NCBI RefSeq assembly: GCF_000027125.1
Contig: NC_017626.1
Strand: one strand, 5' to 3'
Length of the DNA: 64,000 bases
DNA from: Escherichia coli 042
GTDB taxonomy: Bacteria > Pseudomonadota > Gammaproteobacteria > Enterobacterales > Enterobacteriaceae
The notes under the pieces were generated by a model. That model was not told the DNA's origin. It did not search any database and saw nothing but the letters and a program-made list of their open reading frames with translations. The translations under genes and the position numbers were made by a program. The first letter of the stretch is position 1; each line of letters starts with the position of its first letter. Of this stretch, positions 52,237 through 63,564 are shown one piece after another.

Positions 52237-52773
52237 TTATTTAAGTTTAATATTCAACCAGGAAATAAAGAACGTTAAAATAACAAAGGAAAAAACAATC
52301 AAAGAGACATTCCTGAAAAATACGTGCTCATAAAAAAGATAAAAAACGTACAAAATTGGGCACGCAACTTTCAGGACGTTTATATGTTTAGAATTCTCTT
52401 TATCTTTAAAGTTAAAATTACATAAAAATATAAAGAAATATGAAAGCATGGCTGAAAACATCATTGATAAGGCGCGATATGGCAGTCCTGAATTAAAGGT
52501 TTCGACTCCTAATAATATTGTCGATAGCGTTGCAATTATAATTGCCACTTTTTTACTAGAGGTGAAAGTAACGACAAAAAATATCAATGATATAAATAAG
52601 AAAGAAAAAAATATGTAAATATTTGTTGATATATGTACTTTATGAGGAACTGTAAAATAGGTATAACTGATTGTAATTATGATGGTAATTATTCTGTATA
52701 GCATGCATGCTAACAGGCCAATCAGTAGTTTGTTCGCAAATTTATAAGGGGATTCGCTATTGGTTGATTGCAT
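52237..52773 (-). CDS. hypothetical polytopic membrane protein (178 aa), AT-rich, island gene
   Basis: Four to six hydrophobic segments; Ile/Phe/Lys-rich composition typical of horizontally acquired genes. Confidence 0.5.
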   Translation of the reverse strand: MQSTNSESPYKFANKLLIGLLACMLYRIITIIITISYTYFTVPHKVHISTNIYIFFSFLFISLIFFVVTFTSSKKVAIIIATLSTILLGVETFNSGLPYRALSMMFSAMLSYFFIFLCNFNFKDKENSKHINVLKVACPILYVFYLFYEHVFFRNVSLIVFSFVILTFFISWLNIKLK

Positions 52774-52837
52774 GGTTATTATGCTCTTGAATTGTGTATT
52801 TTATTGGAATGTTTCTTGGTTAACTAAAACAATGCAT

Positions 52838-53266
52838 TTAATAGGTGGTGGTGTAAATATCAATGTCATACTCATTATCACAGACTACTATTACTCTACG
52901 AGTTATGTCAAAAAATAACGTTAAATCATAGGTTCCCTGTTCTCTGAAAATACTCTGCGCAAATGACGTGAAATTATTCCCATTTATAACTATTTTTACT
53001 TTACCTTCATAGATAAGCCAGCAACGAAAACATTCAGCTGTACCAGATAATGTCACTATCTGACTGATTAGAAGATTTATATTTACCGGATGAGGTAAAA
53101 AAAGTCTGTCGTTGAGGCAATCAATATTATGTGTTTGATGAAACTCTTTTCTCATTAATGAAGAGTTATCATATAGCAGGGTTATACTAAACGAGTCAAT
53201 TCCGTCAAGCTTTTGCATAAATTTGTTTGCTTTATAAATAAGCAACTTTGCTTGTGTTTTTGTCAT
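52838..53266 (-). CDS. hypothetical protein (142 aa), island gene
   Basis: ORF-track ORF, AT-rich, same orientation and tight spacing with neighbours. Confidence 0.45.
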   Translation of the reverse strand: MTKTQAKLLIYKANKFMQKLDGIDSFSITLLYDNSSLMRKEFHQTHNIDCLNDRLFLPHPVNINLLISQIVTLSGTAECFRCWLIYEGKVKIVINGNNFTSFAQSIFREQGTYDLTLFFDITRRVIVVCDNEYDIDIYTTTY

Positions 53267-53293
53267 GATGGTGATCTTTTATGCAAGGGGGAA

Positions 53294-53740
53294 TTATTGG
53301 AATTCAAATGTTTTATATTCCTCTGTAATCATCTTTAAACTTAACATAGCCATGTCTCGGGTATCTTCATCATCAGATTGTAGAGAAATATTTAATCCTT
53401 TAATTAAGGTGTTATCGGGAAAAGCCATTGCCAATAATGTATACCAACATCGGACACTTTTTATTGTCAGAGGATTTTCCAGTATGTTGGCGATATTTGA
53501 AGCTATAATGTTTTTATCACACTTGTACAAAAAATCTTCGACCAACTGATATACACCGAAGCCATCACCTTCCCCAAACGATTGTAAAAATAACGGTATG
53601 GCTTCTTCAGCAGGATTTGCAGAAAAATAAAGCCTTACATTGTTATATTTATTGATAAGTTCCTGAGTGATGTCATAATCATTTGGCATAGGTTGGTTTA
53701 GAGCAAGGAATGCTAATGCTTCTTTTTTAGTCATATTCAT
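53294..53740 (-). CDS. hypothetical protein (148 aa); possible orphan immunity protein
   Basis: ORF-track ORF, acidic and largely helical by eye; AT-rich and next to IS/Rhs remnants. Confidence 0.4.
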   Translation of the reverse strand: MNMTKKEALAFLALNQPMPNDYDITQELINKYNNVRLYFSANPAEEAIPLFLQSFGEGDGFGVYQLVEDFLYKCDKNIIASNIANILENPLTIKSVRCWYTLLAMAFPDNTLIKGLNISLQSDDEDTRDMAMLSLKMITEEYKTFEFQ

Positions 53741-53760
53741 AATGGTTAATATTGCTTGCT

Positions 53761-54313
53761 GGAAGAATTAAGGTAAAAATGGTTCATAGACAGAATTAAA
53801 TAGGAAGTCTTGTTTCCAGATAACTTTATCATGAAAAAGAGATTTGGCTTGATGCGTATAAAGATTATGAGGATAAATAGTTTCTCCACCATAAATGATG
53901 TTCTTTCCCGTTACACCGGAGAATTCATTGGCTATAATCTGTCGTTTAAGCCAGTGAATGACTTTACATAAGCATATTAATTTATCCTTAGAATCAGTTG
54001 TGTTAATTTCAGTAAGTTGTAAAATCTTTTCCCCATTATACTCAACTAAATGCCCCGGCTTTATTTCAATTCAACCACAATAACGATCAATGCTACTAAA
54101 CTTTATTCTTCTATTGTTAGGTTTAATGCTGGGCATAAGATAAATTCGATGTGCTACGGCAGGGATCTTTTCTGTTAAGACATTTAATTGCTTAGAGTAT
54201 TCATCTTGTAGTGTAAACCAAATTGAATGTAATTTGTATTTTGAGGCTACAATCGCGAGCCAATTAGACAGTTCCTCGTTCGTGCAAAAAACATTTATCC
54301 TGGCAGTTGCCAT
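53761..54313 (-). pseudogene. frameshifted hypothetical gene (~180 codons in two frames)
   Basis: The 80-aa ORF 54071-54313 stops at 54071, but an open frame continues in another frame to ~53761 (IEIKPGHLVEYNGEKILQLTEINTTDSKDKLICLCK...). Confidence 0.4.
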
Positions 54314-61719: not shown

Positions 61720-61750
61720 TTCATTTCCTTAGTTATCACAATTATCATCA

Positions 61751-62305
61751 TAGCTATCTATAAACGTTAGTTTCCATAATATGCTATCCGTGTGCCCACT
61801 TTCCTTTAAATTAACTGCTGGCCCGGGAGGCTATTCAAACGCCATTGAATCAAAGAGGACATTCCAGGCATTACCATCATAAATAGCAGCTCCTCTGGAA
61901 CCACAAACCATCATCACGGTCCCATCGGGTGAAACATCAATTCTTTTACTTAAAACGGCCACTTCAGGAGGGACGGGTTTATGTTTTGCATGCATGGCAA
62001 GCACCAGTTTGTCATCTTCCAGCACCCAGATGCCATAATCACTGGCACACCAGAGACGTCCATCAAACCATCCCATGTCGAGGAATGGCATGGTCATTCC
62101 ACCATGCGTAATTTGTGTCCATTGTTCATTGCGACCCTTCCATATAGCACCGTCAAAATCAGCAATATAAACAAATCCGTCACCGGCACAGCAAACTGTG
62201 TACAGAAGTTTATTTGTCGGAAAAGGGAGTTGTTTCCATTGCTCACCATTAAAGTGATAAACCGTTCCCGTTCCGCCCACTGCATACATATCCGATTCGG
62301 AAAAA
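61751..62305. repeat. direct repeat, copy 2
   Basis: Covers the 3' part of paralogue C plus the downstream remnant of the PAAR-like start. Confidence 0.8.
61755..61778 (-). pseudogene. 7-codon remnant of the PAAR-like gene start (METNVYR-stop)
   Basis: Same upstream sequence and first codons as the 60311-60625 gene, then diverges into the paralogue B upstream region. Confidence 0.5.
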
Positions 62306-62871
62306 CCAGATAAATCTCGGAATCGACTTCTGGTTATTGCTTCCACCTTCCTATCTAACAATCCATCGGGGACAGGCAGGTATGTAGAATGTTCCCGCCA
62401 AATTTGGTGATCAACACGTTTGTATATTCTGAAACCACTACCGATAGCGTAAACACTGTTTTCAATTCGTACTACTTTTATTATAACGGAAAACATATCG
62501 ATAGAACCTGGTATGAGTATATTTATACTTTCTTCTACTCCTTTGTATACATCTTCTTTATAACTCATAACATCACGGTCCTGACTGACCATAACATATT
62601 CGGTCTGAGATGGGGGCCAACCAGAAGATATAGTCATCAGAGATATCCCTGTTGCGCGACGACCATATATGCGATATTTTTTGGAGAGGGTAAACGTAAT
62701 GGAAATTAATCTCTTTTCAGGTGGGTAAAAAGGGTTTTCATATTCGGCATGCTCCTCATCTACCACTTCAATCAATGAAAGACCTACTTTTCCATGCTCG
62801 TAACCATAGGTGCAGTCATATATATAAAAGCCTTTGAGATATTTCTGATACGATTCTATATCTATGATCAT
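61831..62871 (-). CDS. island paralogue C (346 aa), unknown function
   Basis: See paralogue B; GAGGTG SD; start 25 bp after the stop of the 99-codon ORF. Confidence 0.6.
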   Translation of the reverse strand: MIIDIESYQKYLKGFYIYDCTYGYEHGKVGLSLIEVVDEEHAEYENPFYPPEKRLISITFTLSKKYRIYGRRATGISLMTISSGWPPSQTEYVMVSQDRDVMSYKEDVYKGVEESINILIPGSIDMFSVIIKVVRIENSVYAIGSGFRIYKRVDHQIWREHSTYLPVPDGLLDRKVEAITRSRFRDLSGFSESDMYAVGGTGTVYHFNGEQWKQLPFPTNKLLYTVCCAGDGFVYIADFDGAIWKGRNEQWTQITHGGMTMPFLDMGWFDGRLWCASDYGIWVLEDDKLVLAMHAKHKPVPPEVAVLSKRIDVSPDGTVMMVCGSRGAAIYDGNAWNVLFDSMAFE

Positions 62872-62896
62872 TTATCACCTCAAATATCTTCATCGT

Positions 62897-63196
62897 TTAT
62901 AACACCCCCATCACCTGCATTGATTTTTGCAGAGTTAAATCACCACAGGTATAAGCGTCTTGGTAAGCTTTATCCAGTTGCGCTTTCAAACAAGATTTAT
63001 CACAACCGTACATTAATGCAACCTCATCAATTACCATACATCTGGCATCTTTATAACTCATTTCTTTTCCAAAATGCTTTTCTTCTATTAGAGTGCCTGT
63101 AGCTGAGTGTAATGCACCATGTGAACCAGTACGATTGTCTTTTCCTTCCAGACAAATTGTAGGCGCTTTGCCTTCGGTATATTCCCCCCCCAGCAC
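62897..63196 (-). CDS. hypothetical small protein (up to 99 codons from a GTG start; ATG alternative gives 54 aa), first gene of the paralogue array
   Basis: Cys-rich ORF coupled to paralogue C; the GTG start lies in a G8 homopolymer (63184-63191); the start codon is uncertain. Confidence 0.35.
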   Translation of the reverse strand: MLGGEYTEGKAPTICLEGKDNRTGSHGALHSATGTLIEEKHFGKEMSYKDARCMVIDEVALMYGCDKSCLKAQLDKAYQDAYTCGDLTLQKSMQVMGVL

Positions 63197-63564
63197 TTTC
63201 TTGTTGGATATTTGCTACGGGGCATTCTTTATATTAATTTTTCTTCCTTATGGAGTATCTCTGTTTGACACTTTAAAGTCTCTATGAGAATTATAAGATT
63301 TTTTTTAAAATAATACGTTTTCAGATTTAGCAACAGGATTTTCACTCATACGATTAATATACGATATTTTAATCTCAAAAATATATTTGGCTGGTGAAGC
63401 TATCTGGGGTGTATATTCACACCACATATATTATCAAAAGGCAGTTACGCTACCGCCATACCCTGATAAAACTCACCATCTGCACGAAACGGATTTTACG
63501 CTTTTTCTTCCGGCGAAATATCAAATTCTCAATTCAAATAATATCTATTGCGTTATATGACCTA

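Follow-up and report, generated by a model that had tools for sequence, protein, structure and literature searches.

What is the AT-rich DNA that separates nfrB from cusS in Escherichia coli 042, and what, if anything, is it good for? The stretch analysed here (the ‘window’: 64,000 nucleotides (nt) of contig NC_017626.1, assembly GCF_000027125.1) carries between these two genes an island of some 11 kb, which a first-pass annotation, made from the sequence alone, had taken for an orphan island of polymorphic-toxin and type VI secretion system (T6SS) genes. Profile searches support this reading, with significant matches to SUKH-3, Tox-PAAR-like, Tox-GHH2 and PRK06147, as does the site itself, an established locus (Rhs locus 4) at which other strains carry vgrG and an Rhs-type toxin. 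We consider it likely that the island is what erosion has left of polymorphic-toxin modules, delivered by T6SS, at an Rhs hotspot, and that it works as an array of ‘orphan immunity’ genes, to use a term current in T6SS papers. Because no toxin or delivery gene within it is intact, what is left is an immunity-only remnant, and not a store of usable toxin tips. The coordinates of all features are collected in Table 1.

The half of the island next to cusS carries most of the argument. Read from cusS on the minus strand, it comprises a GHH2 open reading frame (ORF), gene O, the 19-nt start of a PAAR-like gene, gene N, a PAAR-like ORF, gene L, a 103-aa ORF holding a PRK06147 remnant, and a 17-aa propeller fragment abutting the second copy of ISEc1; O, N and L are putative β-propeller immunity genes. 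The GHH2 remnant matches Pfam PF15635 (E 9.2e-5, model positions 31–119 of 122), and its ORF is 75% identical to residues 424–511 of a 528-aa toxin of Escherichia whittamii. The GHH catalytic motif is gone: in intact relatives, GQTGHHLLP sits 40–60 residues upstream of the point at which the fragment starts. Behind O, the sequence downstream of the stop codon equals that downstream of the N stop as far as ATGGAAACTAACGTTTATA and diverges beyond. The PAAR-like fragment, already picked out at first pass, matches PF13665 (E 5.3e-9) over model positions 4–63 of 108 and so holds an incomplete domain; its ORF consists of codons 1–91 plus 13 codons read out of frame in the tail of another toxin gene, and over those 91 codons the product matches the N-terminal ends of two intact E. 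whittamii PAAR-like/GHH2 toxins (528 and 531 aa) with 100% identity. The PRK06147 remnant matches NF004798 (E 1.6e-8) over profile positions 272–344 of 349. This remnant and the truncated Tox-GHH2 tip are contents of the island that the first-pass list did not include. The 17-aa fragment matches residues 214–230 of O, N and their homologues, although weakly (tblastn, E ~1e-3 in a small search space). VgrG, DUF6484 and DUF2169 queries from Ralstonia and a metagenome gave no tblastn match in 51901–63700.

Intact counterparts of these pieces were found in E. whittamii. A contig of strain Sa2BVA5 (L013) encodes, in order, VgrG, DUF6484, DUF2169, PRK06147, the 528-aa toxin, a 346-aa propeller, the 531-aa toxin and another 346-aa propeller, and the island can be laid out along it: window positions 63245–61759 (the tail of one toxin gene, the first propeller and the opening 19 nt of the toxin gene after it) share 81% nt identity with L013, 61758–60618 (second propeller) 84%, 60626–60354 (toxin codons 1–91) 94%, and 59128–58926 (PRK06147 3′ end) 94%, the PRK06147 remnant being 93.6% nt identical to L013 3195–3397. 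The two toxin genes of L013 span its positions 3442–5030 and 6136–7730. At 60354 the homology jumps from L013 to a second contig, L047 (95.5% nt), within the closing codons of another GHH2 toxin gene, behind which a propeller gene follows; it is because of this switch that the PAAR-like ORF is read as codons 1–91 fused, in the wrong frame, to the tail of a second toxin gene. O, N and L share 81.5%, 85% and 96.7% aa identity with three E. whittamii propellers: the orthologues of O and N are the first and second immunity genes of L013, respectively, and that of L follows the Tox-GHH2 gene in L047. As far as can be judged by homology, intact cognate toxins of the island propellers are thus present in E. 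whittamii. These full-length GHH2 partners were reached via the immunity gene, because the GHH2 tip itself, used as query in a word-indexed homology search, returned just short orphan fragments (≤123 aa).

Table 1. Features of the nfrB–cusS island in the window.
Feature	Coordinates	Strand	Remarks
Whole accessory island	52043..63586	.	11,544 bp, GC 0.401; flanked by nfrB (49663-51900, -) and cusS (3′ end from 63565, -)
Gene B	52838..53266	-	142 aa; PGAP hypothetical, WP_000169380.1; final member of the D-C-B series of small AT-rich genes
Gene C	53294..53740	-	148 aa
Pseudogene D	53780..54313	-	~177 codons, one in-frame stop; between ISEc1 copy 1 and gene C
ISEc1 copy 1 (H-repeat, ISAs1 family)	54551..55841	-	1,291 bp; bounds from copy 1/copy 2 alignment
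Rhs core (YD-repeat) fragment	55842..56045	-	~70 aa; abuts ISEc1 copy 1
SUKH-3 immunity gene	56063..56524	-	Intact, 153 aa; PGAP name agrees
Deaminase-like toxin, C-terminal remnant	56527..56727	-	66 aa; cut at 56701/56702 by ISEc1 copy 2
ISEc1 copy 2	56702..58769	-	Inactivated through IS1 insertion
IS1	57204..57971	-	768 bp; nested in ISEc1 copy 2
Fourth β-propeller immunity gene, 17-aa fragment	58764..58817	-	Abuts ISEc1 copy 2; weak evidence
PRK06147 thiolase-like T6SS adaptor gene, last ~70 codons	58865..59176	-	NF004798
Propeller immunity gene L (putative)	59269..60279	-	336 aa, intact; directly after truncated PAAR-like gene
Truncated PAAR-like (DUF4150/PIPY) toxin gene	60311..60625	-	104-aa ORF; junction at 60354
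Propeller immunity gene N (putative)	60679..61719	-	346 aa, intact
PAAR-like toxin gene 5′ end, 19-nt remnant behind O	61759..61777	-	From comparison downstream of O and N
Propeller immunity gene O (putative)	61831..62871	-	346 aa, intact; directly after GHH2 remnant
Tox-GHH2 (HNH/EndoVII) nuclease toxin, C-terminal remnant	62897..63245	-	ORF 62897-63196 (99 aa); rest is frameshifted homology

The same cannot be said of E. coli, for which 5,426 complete genomes were searched. No intact L013-type module was found in them with an E. whittamii DUF6484-to-toxin probe, which hit 153 genomes, all matching just the three island remnants (21% coverage). A more sensitive query, consisting of the part of the toxin that the island lacks, found 13/5,426 genomes, each with a diverged PAAR-like gene. 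PS10-3, the one examined of these 13 (L091, 1–17920), has a complete T6SS cluster (tssBCEF, hcp, vgrG) and an intact pef-type module, but its immunity proteins are only 26–38% identical to O, N and L. The PS10-3 module itself has two Tox-GHH2 toxins and three propeller genes, then a gene for a 411-aa hypothetical protein and a thioredoxin-domain gene, which occupy the positions held elsewhere by HEAT and p130.

The three propeller genes had been noted at first pass as a tandem array of paralogues, and can now be given a more precise identity. Neither Pfam nor NCBIfam scans of O, N and L gave a match, and no meaningful PDB sequence match was obtained for O, for gene C or for the GHH2 remnant. 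Structure prediction was more informative: the AlphaFold2 model of O (predicted local distance difference test, pLDDT, 91.8; predicted template modelling score, pTM, 0.91) is a confidently predicted β-propeller, for which the best Foldseek matches are WD40, G-beta and Ycf48 propellers. L is 29% identical to O. N is 74% identical to O overall, a figure that conceals a mosaic in which the 5′ 540 nt are ~57% identical and the 3′ ~500 nt, together with 72 nt downstream, 97–100% identical (60607–61333 and 61759–62485); synonymous divergence (dS) is 0.157 in the 3′ part, versus saturation in the 5′ part. The pattern fits a footprint of recombination or gene conversion in a conserved 3′ half. By analogy with PefE, introduced below, it also fits a specificity seated in the N-terminal half of N and O.

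The name comes from Proteus mirabilis: there PefE, 320 aa long and with a predicted bladed-propeller fold, neutralises the PAAR/Tox-GHH2 toxin PefD (Alteri et al. 2017, PMC5714391). PefE specificity lies in aa 92–195 and can turn on three residues; an orphan copy, PefE2, located beside transposase pseudogenes and an rhs fragment, guards against the operon of another strain (PMC5714391). The island resembles the pef operon (hcp-vgrG-pefA..G) in its type of toxin (PAAR-like plus Tox-GHH2), in the predicted propeller immunity protein of ~320–346 aa encoded directly downstream, in extra orphan immunity copies near transposase remnants and an rhs fragment, and in the division of the immunity protein into a variable N-terminal and a conserved C-terminal half. 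Unlike that operon, it lacks vgrG, DUF6484, DUF2169, HEAT (pefF), p130 (pefG) and an intact toxin, and the immunity genes alone remain. In P. mirabilis ATCC 29906, two homologues (L070 and L072; not the published PefE sequence) share 34–37% identity with O over the C-terminal part (E 1e-31 to 1e-32); behind L072 come homologues of HEAT and p130, where pefF and pefG would be expected. On sequence and modelled structure, then, O, N and L are putative PefE-type Tox-GHH2 immunity proteins. Zhang et al. 2012 assigned Tox-GHH2 no immunity family and remarked that immunity proteins of propeller type had yet to be described, a gap later filled by the Proteus work.

A related arrangement is the vgrG1b cluster of Pseudomonas aeruginosa (PA0095–PA0101), encoding the PAAR-like/Tox-GHH2 DNase Tse7 and its immunity protein Tsi7 (PMC7970981, PMC4067218). 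What it shares with the island is the ancestral module (VgrG, an OB-fold protein, DUF2169, PRK06147 thiolase-like protein, PAAR-like/GHH2 toxin, immunity, HEAT), of which the island retains only fragments; the likeness to the cluster of Tsi7 (PA0100) is one of gene order. PRK06147 is a proposed T6SS adaptor, with Tox-GHH2 as its most frequent neighbouring toxin (PMC7714669), and DUF4150 ‘PIPY’ domains require DUF2169 and VgrG for function (PMC11883445). Set against these units, the minus strand from cusS onwards reads as at least three collapsed copies of a pef/vgrG1b-type effector unit.

The same module, and the same propeller, occur in many other genomes. At E ≤1e-3 the O/N/L family comprises 1,905 clusters at 50% identity. 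The intact unit runs VgrG-DUF6484-DUF2169-PRK06147-PAAR-like/Tox-GHH2 toxin-β-propeller immunity-HEAT-p130. Ralstonia solanacearum, for example, has the order VgrG-DUF6484-DUF2169-(311 aa)-toxin-propeller-HEAT, in which the toxin is a 538-aa PAAR-like/Tox-GHH2 protein; in a Pseudomonas species a propeller homologue likewise directly follows a PAAR-like/Tox-GHH2 toxin; and on a metagenome contig, PAAR-like and GHH2 are separate genes with the propeller homologue directly after. To the Ralstonia-type and metagenome modules, the island's PAAR-like ORF is 56–67% identical (toxin N-termini) and its GHH2 ORF 36–50% identical (toxin C-termini), and the PRK06147 piece shares ~51% identity with the C-terminal ends of the proteins encoded ahead of the PAAR-like/GHH2 toxins in Ralstonia and on the metagenome contig.

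A wider scan took one genome per species from 100,044 species and used an 8-sequence alignment and a single peptide pattern; the 75 loci it yielded, a subset of the family biased by that one pattern, were annotated with hidden Markov models built from the Ralstonia, Pseudomonas and metagenome modules. The P. mirabilis loci L070 and L072 were among them; P. aeruginosa was not. Propeller copies lay directly after a GHH2 ORF in 41/100 evaluable cases and directly after another propeller in 24/100. The full order VgrG-DUF2169-PRK06147-PAAR-like-GHH2-propeller was seen in 21 of the 75 loci, with HEAT and a ~130-aa gene behind it in most cases, and two or more propeller copies were present in 25/75, three or more in 9/75. 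Arrays of several predicted immunity genes (‘poly-immunity’ arrays) are, on this sequence comparison, a recurrent trait of the propeller family. At the upper end, loci from Massilia, a Chromatiales metagenome-assembled genome, Roseateles, Pseudomonas and Enterobacillus (L018, L028, L056, L057 and L074, respectively) have 4–7 tandem propeller paralogues, some of these arrays standing directly after vgrG without a toxin. Some family members carry further domains: in P0234 (559 aa) the propeller is fused to a SMI1/KNR4 (SUKH-1) domain, and among P0192, P0193 and P0199 (445–448 aa), P0193 is an ankyrin-repeat protein according to UniRef and the others have a ~100-aa C-terminal extension.

A second unit, of Rhs type, lies between the two ISEc1 copies. 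The YD-repeat fragment reported at first pass scores 17.2 bits against TIGR01643 (YD_repeat_2x; cut-off 15.8, E 0.005), and this ~70-aa piece of core is all there is: a full-length rhs gene, with YD-repeat core and PxxxxDPxGL boundary, is absent from the island. The earlier immunity candidate proves to be a SUKH-3 protein (PF14433, E 4.4e-10), covering 141 positions of the 146-position model (3–143). Its neighbour, described at first pass as a deaminase-like toxin tip, does show in its translation CAE and PNCRNC (PCxxC-type), motifs characteristic of toxins with a deaminase fold, but the Pfam YwqJ-deaminase match is weak (E = 1), and nothing upstream of the CAE motif has been retained in the 66-aa remnant. 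Imm-SUKH proteins are associated with YwqJ deaminases (PMC3482391). In complete E. coli genomes this unit was encountered in its truncated form only (147 genomes).

On the nfrB side, gene C is probably an Rhs C-terminal toxin (Rhs-CT) immunity protein, judging by where its homologues sit. With 52800–54340 as query, the best match was just 60–80% identical, in 22 genomes, and in all three listed of those 22 a 72%-identical copy of gene C lies beside an annotated RHS repeat-associated core domain protein. In STLEFF_29, the one examined, this copy shares 4 bp with the end of a C-terminal Rhs toxin fragment that has a DPxGL boundary, which places it in the classical rhsI position. Pfam returned nothing for the Rhs C-terminal domain upstream of that gene C homologue, for the read-through product of pseudogene D, or for the peptide abutting ISEc1 copy 1.

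In these respects the island also resembles Rhs locus 4 and the E. coli Rhs loci with H-rpt (ISEc1) elements and orphan rhs-CT/rhsI pairs (PMC2935791): it shares with them the nfrB–cusS site, a YD-repeat core fragment, ISEc1 elements, AT-rich pairs of C-terminal tip and immunity gene (SUKH-3 with the deaminase-like tip; gene C) and a mosaic make-up produced by recombination. It differs in having neither full-length rhs nor vgrG, both of which strain ETEC4070 possesses at the same site, and in being derived mostly from PAAR-like/GHH2 modules and not from rhs.

The insertion sequences (ISs) named at first pass, one IS1 and two H-repeat elements, are all present, both H-repeats being ISEc1. Copy 1 is intact, with a 378-aa transposase (54561–55697; NF033564 transpos_ISAs1, E 8e-122). 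Aligning the copies equates 54551–55052 with 56702–57203 and 55043–55841 with 57971–58769, so that copy 2 is seen to be split by IS1, which is 99–100% identical to IS1A/IS1B copies and flanked by a 9-bp target duplication, TGGATTATT, at 57195–57203 and 57972–57980.

The borders of the island were set by alignment with the K-12 genome, in which the last homologous base on the nfrB side is 52042 and the first on the other side 63587. An island of ~11 kb does lie where it was first drawn (52237–63560), but the true junctions, 52042/52043 and 63586/63587, fall slightly outside those limits. Twenty-three bp of K-12 sequence have been swapped for the island, the last ~5 cusS codons among them, and the junctions look like those of a replacement between conserved flanks, not of a site-specific insertion. 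The second junction lies inside the cusS 3′ end, and CusS is 482 aa in carriers compared with 480 aa in K-12. As first reported, the island is AT-rich: GC content falls from 0.52–0.58 in nfrA/nfrB (0.540 for nfrA–nfrB) to 0.29–0.44 at ~52.0–63.5 kb and rises again in cusS, and the island as a whole compares with 0.512 for the rest of the window (1–52042), where 81/81 upstream segments of 11.5 kb had GC ≥0.475. The left unique, middle and right unique parts have GC of 0.337, 0.376 and 0.417, and IS1 is the sole GC-normal piece (0.536). The cusS-side genes are all on the minus strand, the array being wholly co-oriented with cusRS; no large ORF lies within the island. The count of 13–15 genes given at first pass was too generous, as only ~7 ORFs, IS genes left out, are credible intact genes, the others being remnants or doubtful ORFs.

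The island is accessory rather than core, as the first-pass annotation had proposed. Each of its three IS-free parts was found, at ≥80% coverage, in 147–151 of the 5,426 complete genomes (~2.8%), and a 400-bp probe for the K-12-type nfrB–cusS junction was contiguous in 2,326. In most of the remaining genomes this probe was split at the junction point, indicating that the site is highly polymorphic; among the conserved Rhs loci that Jackson et al. 2009 tabulate for E. coli and Shigella, nfrB–cusS is number 4 (Table 3, PMC2935791). Variants include ETEC4070, with vgrG, an Rhs-type zincin toxin and ISEc1; CB6837, with the island but without the SUKH-3 unit; and RMDEC465, a minimal variant with gene C alone (92% identical; L089 5067–5513), which suggests that gene C has long been present at the site or has been kept there by selection. 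Between carriers, sequence identity over the island is at least 99%. Strain 118UI, the nearest match found among complete genomes, shares the island with an ISEc1 copy 2 that is still unbroken, and the deposited proteins CBG33412 and CBG33419/EC042_0592 of enteroaggregative E. coli (EAEC) 042 are identical to island proteins.

How might such a locus have arisen, and what could it do? Deletions and ISEc1/IS1 events have taken out or truncated each delivery and toxin part of the pef-type units while the propeller ORFs stayed open, and the second, Rhs-type unit (deaminase-like tip plus SUKH-3) was cut likewise by ISEc1. The island would thereby be unable to deliver a toxin or to intoxicate anything. 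O, N and L would be cytoplasmic proteins, each binding and blocking a particular incoming Tox-GHH2 DNase, with a specificity that depends chiefly on the N-terminal, variable half of the propeller; a deaminase toxin injected by the T6SS of competitors would be blocked by SUKH-3. If expressed, these genes would give resistance to T6SS attackers armed with the cognate toxins. That O, N, L, SUKH-3 and gene C actually form a maintained, expressed immunity-only locus against Tox-GHH2 and deaminase effectors of other Escherichia and enterobacteria, such as E. whittamii, is a proposal we put forward tentatively, as somewhat short of an even chance.

Several observations weigh against the reading of the island as an immunity array. 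Genes B and D fit no family assignable by profile searches. The ratio of nonsynonymous to synonymous substitution rates (dN/dS) between O, N and L and their E. whittamii orthologues is low (0.13–0.14), but this may stem from selection before toxin loss, and present-day selection is not measurable because the carriers are so nearly identical across the island. O and N are just 81–85% identical to the E. whittamii immunity proteins and, with PefE specificity able to hinge on three residues, cross-protection at that level of identity is uncertain. As to expression, silencing of AT-rich islands is common in E. coli, there is a weak terminator-like hairpin behind cusS, and promoter-like sites are not enriched (22 found versus 37 expected, in a scan that was uninformative).

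The main rival takes these doubts to their end: the island would be pure genomic debris with no present function, its immunity ORFs silent and open just because the decay is recent. Each toxin and delivery gene is indeed broken, there are three IS copies with one nested in another, pseudogene D is interrupted by a stop codon, there is no enrichment of promoter-like sites, and the near-identity of carriers is compatible with a recent, possibly clonal, spread. Against debris, three ~1-kb propeller ORFs and SUKH-3 are intact when each neighbouring toxin gene is deleted or cut, an asymmetry that is expected if selection retains immunity genes. The dN/dS values, too, speak against it, as do the multi-copy propeller arrays that recur in many taxa and the Proteus orphan PefE2, which is functional in a very similar setting (PMC5714391). 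We regard debris as unlikely on balance, though by no means negligible.

Much less probable is that the island serves as a cassette store, from which orphan tips are moved by recombination into a full-length toxin gene (rhs or PAAR-like) elsewhere in the genome, creating new effectors (C-terminal displacement). This is the accepted model for Rhs and contact-dependent growth inhibition (CDI) orphan arrays (PMC2935791, PMC3482391), and the recombination footprints of the island (the near-identical 3′ halves of N and O, and the 19-nt PAAR-like 5′ end behind O) speak in its favour. Against it, the GHH2 tip is without its catalytic GHH motif and the deaminase tip without anything upstream of CAE; a close full-length partner for either tip was found in 0/5,426 E. 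coli genomes, and in PS10-3, the one examined of the 13 genomes with a pef-type toxin, the immunity proteins are only 26–38% identical to O, N and L. That the island is an anti-phage defence island or other mobile element, unrelated to interbacterial toxins, we reject as highly improbable: it is AT-rich, accessory, at a hotspot and adjoins the phage N4 receptor genes nfrA and nfrB, but PADLOC found no defence family among its proteins, it contains no integrase or tRNA, its junctions are unlike a site-specific insertion, and its positive family matches are all to T6SS or polymorphic-toxin families.

As an orphan immunity array, the island shows what the decay of a T6SS effector locus looks like, with toxin genes deleted or cut and the neighbouring immunity genes open: a strain no longer able to attack with these toxins may still resist them, and the E. 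whittamii toxins provide a concrete candidate for the cognate attacker. The concept of orphan immunity gene arrays, or acquired interbacterial defence islands, comes from work on Vibrio cholerae and Bacteroidales. Like those arrays, the island has immunity genes without cognate toxins, in tandem and in a minority of strains; it differs in that its mobile machinery consists of IS copies only and in that the array clearly arose through in-situ decay of effector modules. Were it maintained and expressed, it would be an enterobacterial counterpart of acquired interbacterial defence islands, close cognate toxins being found in 0/5,426 complete E. coli genomes. E. coli proteins called ‘hypothetical’ or ‘WD40-like’, for which no Pfam or NCBIfam model exists, gain a name as putative PefE-type Tox-GHH2 immunity proteins. 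The locus, the module and the immunity family have all been described already and current understanding of them is unchanged; added here are the exact junctions, the PefE-type assignment, the toxin-deleted but immunity-retained architecture, and the intact E. whittamii cognates.

Of the remaining candidates at the nfrB end, gene B has no Pfam, NCBIfam or PADLOC match. A 178-aa, very hydrophobic minus-strand ORF at 52237–52773 was rejected and is probably not a gene: it has 29% GC and no family match, and the NCBI Prokaryotic Genome Annotation Pipeline (PGAP) calls a small plus-strand ORF instead. Further from the island, tRNA-Arg(UCU) (argU, 44747–44823) is directly followed by envY (44869–45630), with no DLP12-type prophage, appY or ompT at this position, where the island carrier 118UI has a lambdoid prophage, appY and ompT before envY.

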